IMG/VR virus record: IMGVR_UViG_3300036798_000298
Span: 1-29,773 of that record
Strand: one strand, 5' to 3'
DNA: 29,773 bases
Source of the DNA: a virus
Lineage: Duplodnaviria; Caudoviricetes
The first letter of the stretch is position 1. Each line of letters opens with the position of its first letter. The translations under genes were made by a program, and so were the position numbers. Under the pieces are notes generated by a model. That model was not told where the DNA came from. It did no database searches and saw nothing but the letters and a program-made list of their open reading frames with translations. Shown here piece after piece: positions 2,698 to 20,644 of the stretch.

Positions 2698-4851
2698 TCA
2701 CTGCGGCTGGCCGCGCCAGCCAGGCTGGGTGACGGCCGGCGGCACACCGGGCTGCGGCAGGGTCGGGGCGCCGGGCGTGCCGGGCTGACCGGGCGCCGCC
2801 GCCGGGGGCTGCGTGCCGCGCAACGGCACCTTGTCGCCGCCGACGCCGCCGCCACCACCCCCGCCGCCACCCTGCGGCTGGGTGCTTTTCAGGAAATCGA
2901 CGCCGAGCCCGATCTGCGAGGCGTGCGCGTCGGAGACCGCCTTGAACGCCTGGGCCTCCTTGTGGGTCTTGTCGGCCTGCTTGACGCCGGTGTCGGCCTG
3001 CTTGTTCTGCAGGTCGGAAACGCCCTGCGCGATCTTCGCCTGCATCTCCAGCTGGGCGTTCTGCTGCTGCATCTGGATGTTCATCTGCGACCGCTGGCGG
3101 ATCGAGTTGGCCAGCTTCATCGAGACCGCCGCGGGCACGTCGAGGAACGGCAGGATGTCGGCGATCTCCTCAGGCCCGATCAGGCCGGCCTGCAGCAGCT
3201 GCGGCAGCAGCGGCAGCATCACCTGCATCACCTTGGCCTTCTGGTCCGGCCCCGACGGCGCCTCATCGACGATGATGTCGTACTCCTGGGTCTGCAGGCT
3301 CTGGGCGAGCGGCACATACTGCGAGGTGCCCGCGTCCACGATCCGCACCAGCTTGTCGGGCGGGAAGTAGACCCGCATCTGGGCGAGCAGCAGCTGACCC
3401 TGGTTGCGCTGGTAGCGGCGCTTCGCATCGAAGAACGCCGAGAGGATCCCGTAAGCCGCCTGCTTGCGCTGCTGCTCCAGCACGCCTGCCTGCTCGCGGC
3501 CGACCAGTCCGAGGATCTCCTCGTTCACCCCGGTGCAGGCCTGCACCATGTCCTTGGCGAACTCCATCAGCTGGAACAGCGCCGGCTGGACCGGCGGCGG
3601 GGTCTTCGGGGACATCTTCGACCCGTGCGCGCCGCTGAGAGCCCCTGGCTTCAGCCAGGTGATCTTGTCGGTCGCCGACCAGGTCTGCTCGAACCCGCGG
3701 ATGTCATCGACCGCGTCCTCTTCCAGCGCCATGCCGCCGTTGGCGTTGGTGCGGATGATGTGGAGGATCTCGGAATAGAGCTTGTTGGTGAACCGTTGCG
3801 GATCGACCATCGGCTTGATCAGGCCGAACCAGGTTCCGGCGTTGCGGTCCCGCTTGCCGGTGATGCACTTGTACCTGAAGTCGTTCTCCTGCAGCTGCTC
3901 CTTGCCGAGCAGCTCGCCGCCCGCGGTGAAGGCCCGGTAATAGACCTTGTGGTGGCTGGAGACGTACTTGAGGTCCGGCATCTGCGCCTGGACCTTCGAG
4001 AAATCGTCCGGCGACAGCTTCTGGATCTGGGTGACCGAGGCGTCCTGCTGCGACGGCATCGCGGCCAGCATCACCGGCTCACGATCCCACCACTGCCACT
4101 CGCAGACCACGACGGTGTCGAGGTCGGTGCCTTCGCCGAGCATGCCGTGCGTGTAGCGGACCCGCGGGTTGACGATCGTCAGGCGCTTGCCGTCGCCGAC
4201 CGCCGCGCCGTCGGCCGAAAGATCCGGGCGCTGCATCTCGGCTTTGAAGTCCTCGAAATCGTCCGGCGACATCGGGATCTCGCGCTTCACGTAGCGCATG
4301 TCCTCAAGGCAGCGTTTGCGGGCGCTTGGGTCGGCGCGCATCTGCAGCGGATCGACCCGCTCCTTGATCAGCATTACCTTGTCGCCCTCGACATCGGGCC
4401 GTGTCTCGGTCCAGCCGAGCCCGCAGATCAGGCAGTCCCAGAAGCTCTCGCTGTCCTCCTGATCGCCGTTGCACTCATCACTGACGTACTCGGCGCCCTG
4501 GCTCAGCACGTCGGCCACGCCGGTGTCGCCGACCTCGCGCGGGTAATACTGCACCTGCTGGCGGTTGGAGATCTCCGCGCCCTGGACCGCATCGATCACC
4601 GGGCCGGCCAGGTTGAAGGTCACCGCGATCTTGCGGTTGCCCTCCAGCTGGGCGATCTCCTCCTCCGTCCACTGGTCGCCGCCGACGAAGCCGTACCAGT
4701 AGCGGGCCTTTTCCAGCCACGCCGACCAGTGACCGGCCAGCTGGCTGTCCCACTCGTCAAACCGGGCGAGCAGCGCGTCGTCGCTGCTCTCGGCTTCGGC
4801 CGGGGTGGCCTGGGCGTCGAGTTGCGGGCCGGTGTCGCGGAGGTCGCTCAC
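2698..4851 (-). CDS. Portal protein, P22-like
   Basis: 717 aa with GDQW, TFNL..P.ID.V.G.E..NR, DCLICGLGW and WFGLIKPMVDPQRFTNK motifs, and a C-terminal Gln-rich coiled-coil barrel. Confidence 0.9.
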   Translation of the reverse strand: MSDLRDTGPQLDAQATPAEAESSDDALLARFDEWDSQLAGHWSAWLEKARYWYGFVGGDQWTEEEIAQLEGNRKIAVTFNLAGPVIDAVQGAEISNRQQVQYYPREVGDTGVADVLSQGAEYVSDECNGDQEDSESFWDCLICGLGWTETRPDVEGDKVMLIKERVDPLQMRADPSARKRCLEDMRYVKREIPMSPDDFEDFKAEMQRPDLSADGAAVGDGKRLTIVNPRVRYTHGMLGEGTDLDTVVVCEWQWWDREPVMLAAMPSQQDASVTQIQKLSPDDFSKVQAQMPDLKYVSSHHKVYYRAFTAGGELLGKEQLQENDFRYKCITGKRDRNAGTWFGLIKPMVDPQRFTNKLYSEILHIIRTNANGGMALEEDAVDDIRGFEQTWSATDKITWLKPGALSGAHGSKMSPKTPPPVQPALFQLMEFAKDMVQACTGVNEEILGLVGREQAGVLEQQRKQAAYGILSAFFDAKRRYQRNQGQLLLAQMRVYFPPDKLVRIVDAGTSQYVPLAQSLQTQEYDIIVDEAPSGPDQKAKVMQVMLPLLPQLLQAGLIGPEEIADILPFLDVPAAVSMKLANSIRQRSQMNIQMQQQNAQLEMQAKIAQGVSDLQNKQADTGVKQADKTHKEAQAFKAVSDAHASQIGLGVDFLKSTQPQGGGGGGGGGVGGDKVPLRGTQPPAAAPGQPGTPGAPTLPQPGVPPAVTQPGWRGQPQ

Positions 4852-5030
4852 TTGATCCGCCTGACCTCACCGACAACCGGTGAGCAGGTGCAGGCCGCGC
4901 CCTTGAAGATCGCGCAGTCGCCGTCGTGATAGACCGGGGCCATGAACACGCCGGGCCTGTCGGTCTGCAGGGATTTCGACCGCTCGATAAGCGTCCGCAT
5001 CGCAGGTGAAAGAGGGACGGTCCTGCTCAT
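4848..5030 (-). CDS. Hypothetical protein (60 aa, H/C-rich: HDGDC...CTC)
   Basis: Translationally coupled on both sides (ATGA and GTGA overlaps). Confidence 0.6.
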   Translation of the reverse strand: MSRTVPLSPAMRTLIERSKSLQTDRPGVFMAPVYHDGDCAIFKGAACTCSPVVGEVRRIK

Positions 5031-5242
5031 CGGCGGGCCGCAATCTCGTTGAGGTCATGGATCTGCTGGCCGATCTCCTCGAACAGCTGATGCAGCAGCG
5101 CGGCGACCTCCAGGGTCAGCGGCTGGCGCTCCAGCAGACCGGCCAGCCGCAGCAGTTCGGCGCCCCAGACGTTGATCCCCTCGCCCTGCCGGTAGCGGGT
5201 GGTGTGTTCGAGACCGTGCTGCAGATCCTCGCGAAAGCTCAT
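5027..5242 (-). CDS. Hypothetical protein (71 aa)
   Basis: ATGA overlaps on both sides; GGAGG SD. Confidence 0.65.
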   Translation of the reverse strand: MSFREDLQHGLEHTTRYRQGEGINVWGAELLRLAGLLERQPLTLEVAALLHQLFEEIGQQIHDLNEIAARR

Positions 5243-5454
5243 CTGGCCTCCACCGGCGGTTCGTAGACCGCGCCGAGCGTGTGGATCGCAGCGGCCACTT
5301 CCTCCAGGGCGCGTTCAATCCGGGCGATCTCCCGTTGCGCCGCCTGCAGCTTCTTCTCGGCGACGGCCCGCTCGCGGACGAAGTCGTCGGCGGCGGTGAC
5401 CAGCAGTCGCACCGGCAGCGGCGCCTCAGTCCGCAGGTTCACGGGCGCGTTCAT
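5239..5454 (-). CDS. Hypothetical coiled-coil protein (71 aa)
   Basis: ATGA overlaps and heptad pattern. Confidence 0.65.
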   Translation of the reverse strand: MNAPVNLRTEAPLPVRLLVTAADDFVRERAVAEKKLQAAQREIARIERALEEVAAAIHTLGAVYEPPVEAR

Positions 5455-5603
5455 TCAGCCGCCTCGCGATCCCGGAATTCCGCGTACCGGGGGTGATCCT
5501 CCGGCGGGGTCCAGGCTTTCGCCTCGACCAGCGGGTGCTTCCGCCGCCAGGCGCGCCGACGGATCTCGTAGCGGCGCTGCAGCATCTCGGCCCAGGCCGA
5601 CAT
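5451..5603 (-). CDS. Hypothetical protein (50 aa)
   Basis: Translated by hand: MSAWAEMLQRRYEIRRRAWRRKHPLVEAKAWTPPEDHPRYAEFRDREAAE*. ATG directly follows the upstream TAG, and the stop overlaps the next ATG. Confidence 0.6.
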   Translation of the reverse strand: MSAWAEMLQRRYEIRRRAWRRKHPLVEAKAWTPPEDHPRYAEFRDREAAE

Positions 5604-6023
5604 CTAGCGGCGCGCCTTCTCGTGCCGGTCGTCGTGCCGGTGGTCGTGCCTGTCGTCCTTATCGTCCCTATCATCCTTATCGGCGCGGGCCGGAGCCTCG
5701 GGGGGCTGCGCCTCGCCATCGAGACGGCTGATCACCTCTTTCAGCAGCACCTCATCAGGATCCTCAACGCCGAGCTGCGGCTGGCCGACCAGACTGGTGA
5801 CCACGGCCGGCGGCGGCAACGTGCCGTCGTCTTCCGGCGGGGCCGGAACCGTCACCTGCACGAAAAGGCCCGGATAGGGCGTGCGGTCGGCGCGCAGCAG
5901 CCACGTCCGTCCCTGGCTGTCGCGATGCGTCGTCTCGCCCTGCCTGCCCCACAGCGTGCGGGCGAGACCGGCGATCATCTCGACCTCGGTCTCGCCCAGA
6001 GCCAGTTTCGCCGCCTTCGCCAT
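5604..6023 (-). CDS. Hypothetical protein with D/R/H low-complexity tail; likely first gene of the portal operon
   Basis: MAKAAKLALGETEVEMIAG... preceded by a GGAG SD. Tail DKDDRDDKDDRHDHRHDDRHEK. Confidence 0.65.
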   Translation of the reverse strand: MAKAAKLALGETEVEMIAGLARTLWGRQGETTHRDSQGRTWLLRADRTPYPGLFVQVTVPAPPEDDGTLPPPAVVTSLVGQPQLGVEDPDEVLLKEVISRLDGEAQPPEAPARADKDDRDDKDDRHDHRHDDRHEKARR

Positions 6024-6057
6024 CGCGCTCTCCACCTCTCAAGGACGGGTCGATCTC

Positions 6058-6362
6058 GGTGGATACGTCCGCGACCGGCGTCAACGGCGACCGGTGTCCG
6101 CGCGCCATCCACCCGAAGCCTTCAGGGGGTGACGCAGGGCTTCCGTTACCCCTCCGTACGGCTGAGCTTCCGCGTGACGTGCGCCTGCGCGCGGTGCTAG
6201 GAAGGTTCGTCGCGTCACATGCGCGAGGGTGCGTCGCGGGAGAGGCAGGTCAAATTAACTGCCCCCCCGCCACCGGCCGGCATTCGGTGACCCCCGGTCG
6301 GTGAACCGTGTCCCAAAAAACCGTGATACCCCGCTGAGCCGCAGCACGTACCCTTTGGGGTA
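6058..6362. other. Run of consecutive stem-loops (structured non-coding element)
   Basis: Paired segments 6058-6064/6107-6113, 6115-6119/6166-6170, 6126-6134/6144-6152, 6174-6179/6213-6218, 6244-6248/6259-6263, 6271-6280/6294-6303 and 6327-6332/6357-6362. Confidence 0.5.
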
Positions 6363-6459
6363 AAGCATGGGGAAAGCGCAGCACGCGGGGTCTCGTACCC
6401 TCGGCGTTTCGGTTCCCTTCCGAGGAACGACGACGGCCACGCGGGATCGATCCAGCGGC

Positions 6460-6627
6460 CGACCAGGTGGCGACCAGGCGTCGGCCGACCGACGGCGCGC
6501 GCCTAGCACACCCAACGGTCTAGAGCGCCTTGGCGAGCGTTTCCACCCGCAACGCCGACCGACGCTGGCGCACGCCGACGACCGACAGCACGCAACGACC
6601 GACAGCCCACGACGACGTGCACGACGA
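6460..6627 (+). repeat. Cluster of CGACCGAC / CGACCAGG short direct repeats (candidate packaging or terminus signal)
   Basis: CGACCGAC at 6486, 6556, 6579 and 6596 (the last two extend to CGACCGACAGC). CGACCAGG twice at ~6460 and ~6471. Confidence 0.55.
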
Positions 6628-6729
6628 AGCCCGCGCTCGGCGCGGGCCGTCGCGGATCTGGAAACACGCGGAAGCGAAGCCGGGCGGAAAAACCGCCCGC
6701 GCCCCGCAAACCCGACGGCGCCGCGCGCC

Positions 6730-7470
6730 TTAAGCGGCGAGCAGCTCGCCGGCCCGATAGAGCGCGAAGCGGCGCTTCTTGGCGCCGTGCGCCGCGATCA
6801 CCGGTGACGCCTTCGCCTTGGCGCTCGACCCCATGCACGCCTTGCACGACGCGCAATCGGTCTTGGCGCCCGCTTCCTCGGACGCGGGACAGACGAACTC
6901 GAGACGCGCCGCGACGGGTTCATCGGCGAGACGGATGCGGAACGTGCGCCAGCCTTGGGCGCGCGCTGCAAACCCTTCTGCGGGAGTATCGGCCGACGCC
7001 ATACAGAACCGCTTCAGCTGCGGCGCCTTGCGCCATTGATGGGTGTATCCCGTCCAGCCCGCGGCGCGTTCGGTGAGAGCTTCCCAGATCGCCACCGGAA
7101 CCGCGGCGGGATCTCCGTACGCGCCAAGCCGAACCATGCGTCCGGCGCCGATGGCGCGGATTGCGTCAAGGTCGGCCGCGGTGGCGTAACGTCCACGGTG
7201 CGTCGTGCGCCACACGTTCAACGGCGCTTGCCCGAGATTGACATAGCAAGCCGCGCCCCGGTGCGGACAATCCCCGCAGACGCTGGCGTCGGCGCCCGTC
7301 TCGACCGCGGCGATAGGATTGATGTCATCGCGAAGGATCCACGTCTGCAGAAGGTCACCGGTCTTGCCGTTCGTGCTGGTCTTGGTGAGCCCCGAGACCA
7401 CGACGACGATAGGCGCGCCGTCCAGCTCGGATGGGCCGCGGTACAGAATGACACTGTTAGGGTTGTACAT
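6730..7470 (-). CDS. Conserved Cys-rich phage early protein (DUF7227/Gp88-like; possible Fe-S or radical-SAM-like fold)
   Basis: Motifs YRGPSELDGAPIV, NGKTGD..QTWIL, VCGDCPHR...CYV, VRLGAYGDP, GYTHQW and CPAS...C..C..C. Family name recalled from memory. Confidence 0.7.
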   Translation of the reverse strand: MYNPNSVILYRGPSELDGAPIVVVVSGLTKTSTNGKTGDLLQTWILRDDINPIAAVETGADASVCGDCPHRGAACYVNLGQAPLNVWRTTHRGRYATAADLDAIRAIGAGRMVRLGAYGDPAAVPVAIWEALTERAAGWTGYTHQWRKAPQLKRFCMASADTPAEGFAARAQGWRTFRIRLADEPVAARLEFVCPASEEAGAKTDCASCKACMGSSAKAKASPVIAAHGAKKRRFALYRAGELLAA

Positions 7471-7511
7471 CGGGTCTCTCTCTCACCGCGCGCAACCGTT
7501 GCGCGCCCGAG

Positions 7512-7631
7512 GGGAGATACGACTAAACGTCGTAATACCCAAGCACTCATTCACGCCGAAAGGTGCGGCATCCGGCCACACGGGAAAGGCGCATCTTGCC
7601 GCTTGCTACATACGACGTTCGGTCGTACGAA
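7512..7631. promoter_or_regulatory. Divergent promoter pair, each with a TACGAC-N5-GTCGTA operator
   Basis: Palindromes at 7518-7534 and 7611-7627. Minus strand TTGGGT-17-TATCTC; plus strand TTGCTA-17-TACGAA. Confidence 0.7.
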
Positions 7632-7659
7632 TTGGGGGTCAAGACCGATAGGAGATCCC

Positions 7660-7890
7660 GTGAACTTCGAGACCGACACCCTCTACGTGGTGGAGCTTTA
7701 CGCCGCTGGCGCCGAATACGCCGCGGACTGTCTCGGCGAGTTCTTCGCCACCGAGGCCGACGCGATCGCTGCGGGCTCAGATGAAATCCGCCGCGTGGCC
7801 GACTTGGCCGACACCGAACGCGAAAAGACCTTCGATTGGGCCGTGCGCTTCACCGTTCGCGCATGCCCGCCAACCCCCTACGCCGACTGA
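7660..7890 (+). CDS. Small acidic hypothetical protein (76 aa)
   Basis: GTG start after an AGGAGA SD; MNFETDTLYVVELYAAGAE... Confidence 0.75.
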   Translation: MNFETDTLYVVELYAAGAEYAADCLGEFFATEADAIAAGSDEIRRVADLADTEREKTFDWAVRFTVRACPPTPYAD

Positions 7891-7906
7891 CCCTTAAGGA
7901 AATCGC

Positions 7907-8164
7907 ATGACAACCTACACCGAAGACGCCGACGCGGAATTCGACGCGCTGGTCGCCGAATTCGACGTGTGGATTTCAGACCCGGCTCAAACCGCCTTCG
8001 CGGGCGCCGGTGACGCGCTGGAAATCCGCATGTTCGCCGAACTCACCGCGCCGCAGATCGCGTGGCTGGACGATTTCATCGCCCGTTGGGATGCAATGGA
8101 AGAAAACCGCGCCTATGCGCCGGACGAAGACGCCGCGCTCAAAGCTGCGTGGGATGCCTCCTGA
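7907..8164 (+). CDS. Small very acidic hypothetical protein (85 aa)
   Basis: TAAGGA SD; 20 D/E versus 4 K/R. Confidence 0.8.
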   Translation: MTTYTEDADAEFDALVAEFDVWISDPAQTAFAGAGDALEIRMFAELTAPQIAWLDDFIARWDAMEENRAYAPDEDAALKAAWDAS

Positions 8165-8382
8165 TGTGGCTCGCCACCCTCGGCACGCGGCACTTCGACT
8201 TCGAAGCCGCCGCTCTGACCGAAGCCGGCGCGCGTGACGCGCTCGCCGCTGGCCTCGCCCATCACGCGGCGCAACACGACCTCGACCCCGAATGGGTGAC
8301 CGACATGCTGGAAGACGCCAGCATCCGCGCCCTCACCCTCGACGCTTGCTACCGCGACCATAACCAGATCACCGGAACCTGA
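8164..8382 (+). CDS. Small hypothetical protein (72 aa)
   Basis: TGATG coupling; MWLATLGTRHFDFEAAALTEAGARDAL... Confidence 0.7.
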   Translation: MWLATLGTRHFDFEAAALTEAGARDALAAGLAHHAAQHDLDPEWVTDMLEDASIRALTLDACYRDHNQITGT

Positions 8383-8386
8383 CCCC

Positions 8387-8725
8387 ATGACCTATCAAGT
8401 TGCATTCCCGGATTTCCCGGAAGCCGACATGCCCGAGATCCCGCAAGGGTTCGAGGACACCTCGTCGCACGACGACGCCTGTCCCTCGTTCGAGCATCCG
8501 GGCCTAGGGCTGCGCCTTCACATCGATTACGCCGACAAGGCTTTGAGCGAGATCCCCGGAGGCTCGCGCTTCGGGCTTTACCAGCTTGAACGCTGGGGAG
8601 ACGCTGACAGCGGCGGATGGGACTGGCCGACCCTCGGCACGACAGACCCGAAGCTCGTTGAAACCGACGATTGGGGCGCCGTGCTTGCGGCTGTCGCCAT
8701 CGCCGCCCACAACCCCGCCGCCTGA
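8387..8725 (+). CDS. Acidic hypothetical protein (112 aa) with F.D.S..DD.CPSF motif
   Basis: Fits the operon; about 20 D/E versus 5 K/R. Confidence 0.75.
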   Translation: MTYQVAFPDFPEADMPEIPQGFEDTSSHDDACPSFEHPGLGLRLHIDYADKALSEIPGGSRFGLYQLERWGDADSGGWDWPTLGTTDPKLVETDDWGAVLAAVAIAAHNPAA

Positions 8726-8751
8726 TTTTCAACCCGGCTTCAAGAGACCCC

Positions 8752-9051
8752 ATGACCATGCACTCCAAGGATCCCCAAACCGTCGGCGCTTACCGGACTG
8801 TCGAAGACCACTTCGACAGCGTGTTTCCAGATCATCCGTTCTTTCCCGACAGCCACACGACCGGCGCCACCGGCTTCGCGCTGGCCTCAATGGAACTGGA
8901 CAGCGAATGCGGCGACGACTGCAAAGCCGCCATCGACGCGGCCGGCAAGCTCGCCGAGAGCATCCGTATGGCGTTCGGCGACACCGACCCCCGCCTCGCC
9001 ATCGTCGCCAACGTCGTCGCCGACGTTTGCCGCTGCTACATCTCAGGGTGA
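8752..9051 (+). CDS. Hypothetical protein (99 aa)
   Basis: MTMHSKDPQTVGAY..., acidic, co-oriented in the operon. Confidence 0.65.
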   Translation: MTMHSKDPQTVGAYRTVEDHFDSVFPDHPFFPDSHTTGATGFALASMELDSECGDDCKAAIDAAGKLAESIRMAFGDTDPRLAIVANVVADVCRCYISG

Positions 9052-9055
9052 CCCG

Positions 9056-9343
9056 ATGACGCCAGCAGATCTGCAGACCGCCCGCCGCAAGCTGGGCATG
9101 TCCGCCGCCGACCTCGGGCGCGCGCTGCGCCTCGGCGGACGCGATCCCGGTCTTCAGGTGCGCCGCTGGGAGCGCGCCATGACCGACGCGGTCCCCGGTC
9201 CTGTACAGGTCGCCGTGGAATTCTTCCTCCGCGACCTGAAAGCGGCGAAAGCGGCCACCCTACCGGCCGACCCCGTGACGCCCGCCCAGCCGCCTCCTAG
9301 GCCCGCTGTGCCGACCTTCAGCCGCCGACGCAGCCCTCGCTAG
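9056..9343 (+). CDS. XRE-family helix-turn-helix regulator (Aca-like position)
   Basis: MTPADLQTARRKLGMSAADLGRALRL...VRRWE...VPGPVQVAVEFFL; last gene of the + operon. Confidence 0.8.
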   Translation: MTPADLQTARRKLGMSAADLGRALRLGGRDPGLQVRRWERAMTDAVPGPVQVAVEFFLRDLKAAKAATLPADPVTPAQPPPRPAVPTFSRRRSPR

Positions 9344-9371
9344 GCGCCCTATCGGGCGCAGCGAGATGTCA

Positions 9372-9409
9372 GCGTAATCCGGTTCGAGCGCAGCGAGACC
9401 GGATTACGC
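9372..9409. terminator. 12-bp perfect inverted repeat between the convergent HTH gene and terL (candidate bidirectional terminator)
   Basis: GCGTAATCCGGT (9372-9383) pairs with ACCGGATTACGC (9398-9409) and overlaps the terL stop. There is no U-tract. Confidence 0.5.
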
Positions 9410-10999
9410 GCCCCATAGGCTCGACAGCAGCCCCCGACCCTGAGACCGACGCCACGGCTTGCCGCTGGCGTCGTTTTCGTTCGGGGCCCTGACGCTGGCC
9501 GCTAGGGTCAGGATGGTGGCGTCCCACCCATCGGGCGAGCGGAGACCGCGCTTTCTGATGTCTTCCTTGCTCTCGATCACCACGAACTGGCGTGCGTCGT
9601 ATTTGTACCCGGCCGCCACCGCGTCGGCGTGCAGCGCATCGTCGTCCGGCAGATCCGCGCCGCCCTCGTCGGCCAGCCAGTCCTTCGCCCGCATGTACAT
9701 CTCGGCTCTGCGGTTGCGGGCGCCCGGGACAGGATCCCCCTTGCCGGTGTAGCTGACCGGGTCCATCGCCGCGCCGCCGAAATTGACCCCCTCGACCAGC
9801 TTCTCGTACTTGCCGCCCCAGTCCTTCAGCAGATCCACCACGCCGGCCCCCATGGCGCCGAGGTCGATGAACACCTTGGCGGGCTCGTCGTCGTCGATGA
9901 TCTTCCGCACCCAGTTCGCGCCCTGGATGGTGTCCAACTTGTAACGCCGCTCGACCTTCAGCACCTTGCGCCCGCGCCGCCACGCAACCGCGAACGCGTC
10001 GTCGCCGAAGCGGGCCGGATCTACACCGACCACCAGCGAGCCGATCGCCTCACACGTCCGCTTGCGCGCCTTCAGCACCAGATCCGAAGGTATGAACGCG
10101 TCGTGGCCGGTGGCCTGAAAGGCTTCCTGGCTGGAAGCCGGGTACTCCTGCCGGAACAGGTTCGGATCCTTCAGTTCCGCCAGCTTGGCGCGCCGCCAGG
10201 CCATCTGCTCCAGCGTCAGGCTGTAGATCCCGGCGTAGTCCTCTTCCTCGTCGTTCAGGCTGAAGCCGACCGGCGGGGGCCGCTGGTATTCCGGCGACCA
10301 GAACCACGGGCTGAAAATCGCGATGAATTCGTCGCCCCCGGCCTCGCTCTGCTGCCAACGCTCGTGGAACGCCCCGCCGATCCCGTTGGCGGTGCTTTCG
10401 AGGATCACTTCGGTTCCATCCAGATCCGGGACGGTCTGCAGCGCCCCGGCGAAATGCTCGCTCGCACTCGGCCAGAACCCGCACTCGCTGCCATGGAAAA
10501 GGCTGGTCGTCCGGCTGCGGCCGGTAGCTTTCGACCCCGCGGTCGAGACGAAATAACCGCTGTCCAGCTTGCTGAAGTAGAGCGTCTTTGCGTTCGCCGC
10601 CCCGGTCATCGGACGCATGCCGGACGGCACGTTGCGGTGGAACCGGTCCACGATCCCGAACAGCTGGTCCGTCGCATCCTGCTCGTGCGTCAGGATGAAC
10701 ACCTGACATCCGTAGCTGTGCGTCACCCGATGGTAGTAGCGCGCCCCGACATAGGTCGAAATTCCCTGCTGCCTGGCCTTCAGGCATAACGCCCTGACGC
10801 GGCCGGTTTCGGCCCGCTGCGCCTCCAGCCTGGCGTGCACGTAGTCCTGCACGCTGTTGAACTTGAGCGGCAGCGTCTCGCCCGCCTTGGTGCGGATCTT
10901 CAGGCAGCACTCGGCGAAATACGGCAGCTGGTCCTTGTACCGCTGGTGCAGGTCGCGGAACTCCTGCGACATCTGCACAGGAGCCAGGAACGCCGACAC
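9404..10999 (-). CDS. terL: Terminase large subunit
   Basis: Walker A-like LKARQQGIST, Walker B-like LFHGSE, coupling motif ESTANG, QEYP, and RNase-H-fold nuclease motifs VGVDPA and PDGWDA. Confidence 0.92.
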   Translation of the reverse strand: MSAFLAPVQMSQEFRDLHQRYKDQLPYFAECCLKIRTKAGETLPLKFNSVQDYVHARLEAQRAETGRVRALCLKARQQGISTYVGARYYHRVTHSYGCQVFILTHEQDATDQLFGIVDRFHRNVPSGMRPMTGAANAKTLYFSKLDSGYFVSTAGSKATGRSRTTSLFHGSECGFWPSASEHFAGALQTVPDLDGTEVILESTANGIGGAFHERWQQSEAGGDEFIAIFSPWFWSPEYQRPPPVGFSLNDEEEDYAGIYSLTLEQMAWRRAKLAELKDPNLFRQEYPASSQEAFQATGHDAFIPSDLVLKARKRTCEAIGSLVVGVDPARFGDDAFAVAWRRGRKVLKVERRYKLDTIQGANWVRKIIDDDEPAKVFIDLGAMGAGVVDLLKDWGGKYEKLVEGVNFGGAAMDPVSYTGKGDPVPGARNRRAEMYMRAKDWLADEGGADLPDDDALHADAVAAGYKYDARQFVVIESKEDIRKRGLRSPDGWDATILTLAASVRAPNENDASGKPWRRSQGRGLLSSLWGA

Positions 11000-19984: not shown

Positions 19985-20080
19985 GGCCAGCAAGTATAAC
20001 GGGTAAACCGTTGTGCCCCGCAAGCTCTCATTTTTCGGAGCGTGTTGGCCAAGCTTAAAAAGTGGGCATACTGCACCGCG
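19985..20080. promoter_or_regulatory. cI/cro genetic switch with divergent, probably leaderless promoters
   Basis: TATACT lies 8 nt before the cro ATG. TTGGCC-16-CATACT lies 8 nt before the cI ATG. Palindrome AACGG-N5-CCGTT at 19998-20012. Confidence 0.6.
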
Positions 20081-20644
20081 ATGGAGACCGCGGGGACAAG
20101 GCTACGAGCGGCGCGTGAGGCCGCAGGCTTTGCAACGGCCAAGGCTGCTGCGTGCAGCATGGGCATACCTGTTACGACCTACACCATGCATGAGGCCTCG
20201 GTTACCCACCTGCCCGCCAAGCGGGCCGAGATGTACGCCAGGGTGTTCGACACCACACCGGAGTGGCTGCTCTACGGCCGGGATCCGCGATCGCCTCCGA
20301 CAGGCGTGCCGCTGCTCACCGAAGACGGCGAGAACGTCTTCGGGATGACTGTGCGGACGCCGGAAGCCGGCGCCATGACCAGGGCGCTGATGGTTGAGGA
20401 TTTCAGCCCTGAACTCGACGGCTGGATGGCCTATTTCGAGTACCCGCAGGGTGGGATGACCCCTGACCTGCTGGGCCTCCTATGCGTCGTTGCGGTGAAG
20501 TTCGAAGGTCTGCCACGGCTCTGGGTGCGGAAGCCGATCGCGGCTGAGACAGCCGACCACCACCATCTGACAGAGGGTGCTTTTCCGCTGTTCGATCAAA
20601 TAATCTTGTGGGCGGCTCGCATAGACTACTTCGGTCGCGGCTGA
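20081..20644 (+). CDS. CI-like repressor (XRE HTH plus S24-like C-terminal domain)
   Basis: RLRAAREAAGF.TAKAAA..MGI...TY..HE...YAR.F.TTPEWLLYG. Confidence 0.85.
   Translation: METAGTRLRAAREAAGFATAKAAACSMGIPVTTYTMHEASVTHLPAKRAEMYARVFDTTPEWLLYGRDPRSPPTGVPLLTEDGENVFGMTVRTPEAGAMTRALMVEDFSPELDGWMAYFEYPQGGMTPDLLGLLCVVAVKFEGLPRLWVRKPIAAETADHHHLTEGAFPLFDQIILWAARIDYFGRG

Follow-up and report, generated by a model that had tools for sequence, protein, structure and literature searches.

We examined a gene cassette at positions 6730-9343 of a 29,773-nucleotide stretch of DNA (IMG/VR record IMGVR_UViG_3300036798_000298; Duplodnaviria, Caudoviricetes). This stretch, referred to here as the window, is a whole viral contig of 29.8 kb. 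A Pfam and PHROG scan of the window found genes for a P22-like portal, the terminase subunits, a primase-polymerase, a C5 methylase and an integrase, and from this set we infer a temperate tailed phage. The gene for the large terminase subunit, terL (9404-10999, minus strand; phrog_2, E 3.3e-32), and the portal gene (2698-4851, minus strand; PF16510, E 4.2e-88) are 4.55 kb apart, and the interval holds the cassette, five small open reading frames (ORFs) that run leftward and a non-coding stretch of about 700 bp. The cassette is composed of five small ORFs (72-112 amino acids, aa) and a terminal gene for an XRE-type helix-turn-helix (HTH) protein, all on the plus strand, and of one Cys-rich gene that runs leftward. 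A preliminary description of this DNA had placed the cassette between terL and portal at these coordinates, which hold, and had likened it to anti-CRISPR (acr) operons that end in the gene of an anti-CRISPR-associated (Aca) repressor.

The split of terL from portal is a trait of the clade. A terL search returned 20 viral loci, and the 16 at 65-74% identity were taken as close relatives; several of these are near one another and they do not stand for 16 independent events. Eleven of the 16 extend to the head of the cassette and ten to the portal. All ten show the split, with a gap of 3.3-6.0 kb, by which a private insertion in the window phage was rejected, and none of the ten has an empty site. 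Three distant terL relatives likewise have a gap. Misassembly of the layout is unlikely, since a contig from run X1, possibly the source sample, spans 3739-9330 without differences.

The HTH gene adjoins the 3' end of terL, convergent with it, in 16/16 close relatives, and the genes upstream of it turn over. On the cassette strand of the relatives our own ORF caller gave 115 ORFs; with the HTHs and 7 doubtful ORFs dropped, 95 cargo genes were left, which form 64 families, 49 of them found in a single locus. The window's own cargo is nearly absent there: ORF2, ORF3 and the leftward gene occur in 0/16 relatives, ORF4 in 1/16, and ORF1 and ORF5 in none. A small terminal HTH is kept downstream of variable small genes, as in acr-aca operons. 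The preliminary description had named a gene set invariant among relatives and without anti-defence activity as evidence against its proposal, and the set is anything but invariant.

In seven more distant phages (L100, L108, L109, L115, L116, L129 and L131) an Aca-like HTH gene lies antisense beside the terminase genes, and several of them have small genes upstream of it. These phages suggest that the terminase flank is a common site for Aca-like cassettes.

Promoter palindromes and the HTH protein

The palindrome TACGAC-N5-GTCGTA is present, exactly as first described, at 7518 and 7611, and even when up to two mismatches are tolerated it has no other match in the window, the vicinity of the CI-like gene at 20042-20644 included. 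Each copy sits in a promoter-like site, one per direction, where it overlaps the -35/-10 core as inverted repeats do in acr-aca operons. The leftward site (7514-7542, minus strand; TTGGGT-N17-TATCTC) holds the palindrome at 7518-7534 and is predicted to drive the Cys-rich gene; the rightward site (7603-7631, plus strand; TTGCTA-N17-TACGAA) holds the one at 7611-7627. A palindromic promoter like the latter also heads the cassette in 10 of the 11 relatives that reach this far, ahead of the first gene and oriented towards the HTH gene, while the eleventh, L087, has a degenerate look-alike only. A stock sigma-70 consensus scan called no promoter at either window site because the -10 boxes are weak.

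A count of loose palindromes alone was not above chance, with two or more copies in 13 of 100 shuffles. The promoter-operator pattern TTG-N3-N1,2-TA-N13-TA, run without a palindrome filter, has 12 matches in 54 kb of terL-portal intervals and none in the 146 kb scanned beyond them; its window matches are the two palindrome sites and no others, and 11 of the 12 interval matches are palindromic at five or more of the six arm pairs. The two arms vary together. Of 48 cells 42 pair, whereas shuffled partners pair in 27.9 on average and in none of 20,000 shuffles in as many as 42. Arm positions 5 and 6 differ among phages and are still complementary (11/12 and 12/12, against 3.9 and 5.9 with shuffled partners). 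Such covariation shows that dyad symmetry is under selection, as it would be at the binding site of a dimer, although relatedness inflates the statistic.

A scan of the collection for the exact site TTG-N5-TACGAC-N5-GTCGTA gave 58 viral loci with 52 distinct sites. In 15 of the 58 a related HTH gene follows on the same strand, no more than about 1.5 kb downstream; six of these were in the seed profile and nine were outside it, the latter comprising six distinct new proteins and a duplicate of one seed, and the HTH of L219 is strongly Aca10-like. This co-occurrence indicates that the exact operator is tied to this HTH class. Aca1, Aca2, Aca10 and Aca12 operons have a structured hairpin in the 5' untranslated region; we tested the corresponding regions here and obtained z values of +0.96 to -2.67 over 13 regions; that of the rightward window transcript (z +0.73) was not significant.

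The HTH protein (9056-9343, plus strand, 95 aa) is a predicted Aca-like repressor with four helices in residues 1-68 and a Pro-rich tail, and its model (predicted local distance difference test, pLDDT, 84) is a four-helix XRE domain. Its best match among solved proteins is Aca3 (PDB 9vt3), by phmmer at E 0.041 and by a profile built from 57 sequences at E 3.4e-4 (residues 2-41); the match covers the HTH only, and unlike Aca3 loci the window has no acrIIC gene. The profile matches Aca10 at E 0.039 and 17% identity. In the fold ranking SO3848 came first (Z 9.0), followed by Aca10 (8.4; root-mean-square deviation, rmsd, 1.2 over 54 residues), NE0471 (8.0), HigA2 (7.9), MqsA (7.8), Aca2 (7.7) and Aca1 (7.2). 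The preliminary description had likened the tail to the Aca1 C-terminus, and this likeness was not confirmed: neither phmmer at E<=10 nor the profile at E<=0.1 had Aca1 among its PDB hits. Aca1 shares the small HTH fold (rmsd 2.0 over 58 residues, the last helix among them) but ranks tenth by fold, below Aca10, HigA2, MqsA and Aca2. The HTH search gave one marginal match among genome contigs and none among isolated phages and plasmids.

Unlike Aca10, the window HTH has a loop insertion ahead of the recognition helix, and by eye it differs at the DNA-reading positions Q37 and R44 reported for Aca10 (PMC9410881). The recognition helix, LQVRRWE, has no Arg at the R44-like place. Judged by these comparisons, the window HTH belongs to neither Aca1 nor Aca10, and members of its family may already figure in published alignments of Aca3 and Aca10.

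Cargo, leftward gene and flanks

ORF1 (7660-7890, plus strand, 76 aa, isoelectric point (pI) 4.10) is acidic and has AGGAG ahead of a GTG start; a homologue search returned only ORF1 itself, and no PDB match was found. ORF2 (7907-8164, plus strand, 85 aa, pI 4.05) has 20 Asp/Glu residues versus 4 Lys/Arg and resembles phrog_9962 (PHROG E 5.9e-5). ORF3 (8164-8382, plus strand, 72 aa, pI 4.65) belongs to a family found near ORF4 homologues in other phages. ORF4 (8387-8725, plus strand, 112 aa, pI 4.11) carries the motif DxSWxND..P and represents a widespread unannotated phage family, with members in 172 viral stretches and 24 records of isolated alphaproteobacterial phages and no Pfam or PDB match. 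ORF5 (8752-9051, plus strand, 99 aa, pI 4.50) is acidic, has 4 Cys and was without match in the homologue search. Around ORF4 homologues, ORF3 was present in 17 of 80 loci (several near-identical) and ORF2 in 7 of 80, and ORF2 homologues as well as fusions of the ORF2 domain to ORF4 homologues occur in L142, L149 and P0065; ORF2, ORF3 and ORF4 are genuine families that keep company in other phages. The Atlas models of ORF2 and ORF4 gave no named match, and the nearest named Atlas cluster for ORF4, PsiB (score 0.75), was discarded as within the chance range. Pfam and PHROG gave no Ocr or ArdA sequence match for the window ORFs. An acidic 115 aa family found in six ORF4 loci (for example L209:4303-4650) has no Pfam match; by its motif it looks Ocr-like.

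The strong acidity seen in the preliminary description is real (pI 4.05-4.65 in 5/5 window ORFs), but it fails as a marker of the locus: it is special to the window genome, because just 17 of the 95 cargo proteins of the relatives have a pI below 5. The commonest cargo in the relatives is a family of about 70 aa starting MALPT...KSLHTLTV (L083:12506-12715 and nine other relatives, 10 loci), which is absent from the window and adjoins DUF7227 genes in unrelated phages.

A Pfam and PHROG scan covered 95 of the relatives' 115 proteins, with duplicates and doubtful ORFs omitted and some HTHs kept. Four of these passed the Pfam cutoff: ArdA in L087 (E 4.7e-25), DUF932 and RadC in L095 and YecR in L096. 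According to PMC11541004, ArdA is an early-expressed anti-restriction protein. A literature search combining DUF932, ArdA, anti-defense and phage found no paper, and therefore DUF932 and RadC were not counted as proven anti-defence proteins. ArdA was also found in 3 of 160 neighbourhoods of ORF4 and DUF7227 homologues, and a related HTH within 4 kb in 22/80 ORF4 loci versus 2/80 DUF7227 loci.

The leftward gene (6730-7470, minus strand) encodes a Cys-rich protein of 246 aa with 8 Cys that belongs to DUF7227/phrog_2554 (Pfam E 2.6e-7, above the cutoff; PHROG E 2.5e-78). The family has members in 506 viral stretches and 152 records of isolated phages. Across 70 sequences the invariant residues are C65, C68, C75, C194, C206, C209, C212 and H228. 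The model (pLDDT 93) resembles GP88-domain proteins (E 0.007-0.02); in a wide fold search ranks 1-13 were all radical S-adenosylmethionine (SAM) proteins, at Z 3.1-4.9, a range that the tool calls a common arrangement, whereas Foldseek against the PDB gave nothing at E<=0.001. This weak likeness extends to QueE (Z 4.9, rmsd 4.9 over 152 residues) and the PFL-activating enzyme. Radical SAM enzymes have a partial TIM barrel, and their canonical cluster motif is CX3CX2C; DUF7227 differs from these enzymes in its spacing, C65-X2-C68-X6-C75. The conserved cysteines suggest metal or iron-sulphur (Fe-S) binding, though the canonical spacing is lacking. Literature searches found no paper on DUF7227 and nothing relevant on GP88, radical SAM and phage together. 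Compared with the relatives, the DUF7227 gene and its own putative operator-bearing promoter have been inserted between the conserved non-coding block and the cassette. The closest homologue in an isolated phage (67%) comes from Caulobacter phage S2B, where it lies in the T7-type early region, third in order from the terminal repeat. A similar early region with integrase and RNA polymerase genes is present in L133 (OR464703), titled Mycobacterium phage jiawei, a host label that looks odd for the layout.

The non-coding block (6036-6729) contains short motifs common to the relatives in a 12-sequence alignment, namely a C-run, GGGG..AAA..GGGG..AAA and TCGCGCGCC. It could be a packaging or replication signal, or the late promoter of the portal-side genes. 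It has no Rfam match, and a terminator-like hairpin within it (6711-6695, minus strand) is not above chance; an RNA anti-CRISPR or other non-coding RNA in 4800-9500 was rejected since Rfam gave no credible match. The five small leftward ORFs ahead of portal (4848-6035, minus strand) are without family match, and that at 5604-6035 has weak homologues at the equivalent place in most relatives extending that far. Between the convergent stops of the HTH gene and terL, RNA folding without shuffle control predicts two hairpins (9336-9409), a possible two-way terminator. A terL search of genome contigs gave no prophage relative. Judged from the cargo homologues alone, the host may be an alphaproteobacterium.

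The locus as a candidate counter-defence slot

We favour, with some reserve, the explanation that the interval is a hypervariable slot of a clade of temperate phages in which a conserved Aca-like HTH, predicted to repress two divergent promoters through the palindromes, follows cargo that likely counters host defences early in infection. The acr-aca-like architecture of the preliminary description stands in this respect: the terminal HTH is conserved and closest to proteins of Aca10/Aca3 type, the palindrome lies between -35 and -10, the cargo is hypervariable, and a relative carries ArdA in the slot. If the locus works as acr-aca operons do, both promoters would be fired by the RNA polymerase of the host when the DNA enters, and the small cargo proteins would act immediately afterwards. 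The HTH would be the last to be made; bound to the palindromes as a dimer, it would shut both promoters and so protect terL, which is convergent with the cassette, and the late genes on the portal side. The sole cargo of known anti-defence role, ArdA, points to restriction-modification rather than CRISPR. By its sequence features the locus would work like an Aca-regulated anti-defence locus, and as an acr operon it is a candidate only.

A close parallel is the acrIC7-acrIC6-aca10 operon of Pseudomonas citronellolis, where small genes are likewise followed by a short XRE HTH gene. In PMC9410881 the Aca10 operator ATACGCTCATTGAGCGTAT sits inside TTGCAA-N16-TATTCT and its core, TACG-N9-CGTA, lies between -35 and -10 as in the window; unlike that operon, the window has no known acr gene upstream of the HTH. 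Core-promoter operators are general to Aca families (PMC12658196, PMC9410906). Aca proteins also regulate neighbouring non-acr operons, several with unknown cargo, as PMC13551039 reports, and the Aca11 and Aca13 loci described there resemble ours in that one regulator serves several operator promoters with cargo of mostly unknown function. They differ in that our regulator is not a numbered Aca and has no known acr anchor, and that its slot is fixed between terL and portal throughout the clade. T7/T3-type early regions carry ocr and SAMase. There and in S2B small genes also stand behind host-type promoters, and that of S2B includes the DUF7227 homologue, but control in the window is by a predicted autorepressor.

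Several observations weigh against the explanation that we favour. Searches of Pfam, PHROGs, NCBIfam, PADLOC and the PDB matched no window ORF to a known family of Acr or anti-restriction proteins, and the 95 scanned proteins of the relatives include a single named anti-defence protein and no Acr. The Foldseek search with the HTH model gave nothing at E<=0.001, and its fold Z scores are largely ties, with HigA2, MqsA and uncharacterised proteins within about one unit. HTHs paired with the exact operator elsewhere mostly have QR(W/Y) in the recognition helix while the window clade has RRW, and for this reason binding of the HTH to the palindromes stays a prediction. Of the 58 operator loci, 43 are without such a downstream HTH within 3.5 kb. 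The -10 boxes at both sites are weak, the TA at either end of the palindrome is partly imposed by the -10 box, and the relatives behind the operator statistics are not independent.

A true anti-CRISPR operon, with at least one of the five acidic ORFs inhibiting a Cas complex and the HTH as a new Aca in the strict sense, would agree with the size of the ORFs, with their acidity relative to that of the relatives' cargo, with the Aca10/Aca3-like terminal HTH and with the Aca10-like operator. We find it distinctly unlikely, and less likely than the preliminary description implied: no known or validated acr gene was found among the window ORFs (Pfam, PHROGs, PDB) or the 95 scanned proteins of the relatives (Pfam, PHROGs), and the families of ORF2-4 also occur in phages without such an HTH nearby, as just 22 of the 80 ORF4 loci have one. 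An autoregulated early slot for host takeover or accessory (moron) genes, acting on host physiology, on exclusion of other phages or to the benefit of the lysogen, deserves somewhat more credence, though it too is improbable. Hydrophobic membrane-like proteins and the YecR lipoprotein are among the cargo of the relatives, the majority of this cargo is not acidic, and the phage encodes an integrase; but ArdA is found in the slot and near ORF4 and DUF7227 homologues, and the near-complete turnover of cargo would suit an arms race.

That the HTH is instead a HigA/MqsA-type antitoxin for the gene upstream, or that the palindromes are operators of the phage's CI/Cro or of some regulator of the host, is very improbable. 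The fold scores of HigA2 and MqsA and a weak NCBIfam match to MqsA (E 0.07) are in keeping with an antitoxin, but the gene preceding the HTH varies between relatives and no toxin family was matched, whereas HigBA and MqsRA pairs have a conserved toxin gene beside that of the antitoxin. The palindrome is absent from the rest of the window, including the surroundings of the CI-like gene, and in unrelated phages, too, the operator is found together with HTHs of this type.

A bolder version of the counter-defence explanation is speculative and we give it little credit: the HTH would found an Aca-like family that bears no number so far and marks a counter-defence hotspot shared by the whole clade and stocked with dozens of new inhibitor families, and the DUF7227/GP88 protein, under the same control, would be a divergent Fe-S anti-defence enzyme of radical SAM fold. 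Its activity might for example be to drain SAM, as T3 SAMase does, or to destroy a nucleotide signal. If true, this would assign a role to proteins that are encoded in early regions of phages as far apart as those of Caulobacter and Mycobacterium.

Regulators of Aca type, and the operators that go with them, have a proven record of leading to new anti-defence genes. In this clade a single regulator with its operator marks out a slot of fixed position, in which 16 phage contigs carry about 64 gene families, most of them unannotated; further operons were found by the operator alone, and together these make a ready screening set. The DUF7227/GP88-like family is widespread and uncharacterised, and its tie to an Aca-like regulon would also make its function testable. 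Compact operons of one or two genes with the exact operator and an Aca10/Aca2-like HTH were seen in L128/L251, L231, L234, L235, L236 and L219, and the genes upstream of the HTH in them, for instance one for a DUF6197-like protein of 147 aa, are direct Acr or anti-defence candidates. On a single 96 kb contig (L248-L250 and L259) a long series of small genes, among them one for an HD-domain protein, is under the control of at least seven copies of this promoter-operator. Other HTH subfamilies (L114-L118 and L129-L131) go with different palindromes in TTGAC promoters, such as CGGAT-AAT-ATCCG, which offers an opening to test the co-variation of recognition helix and operator.

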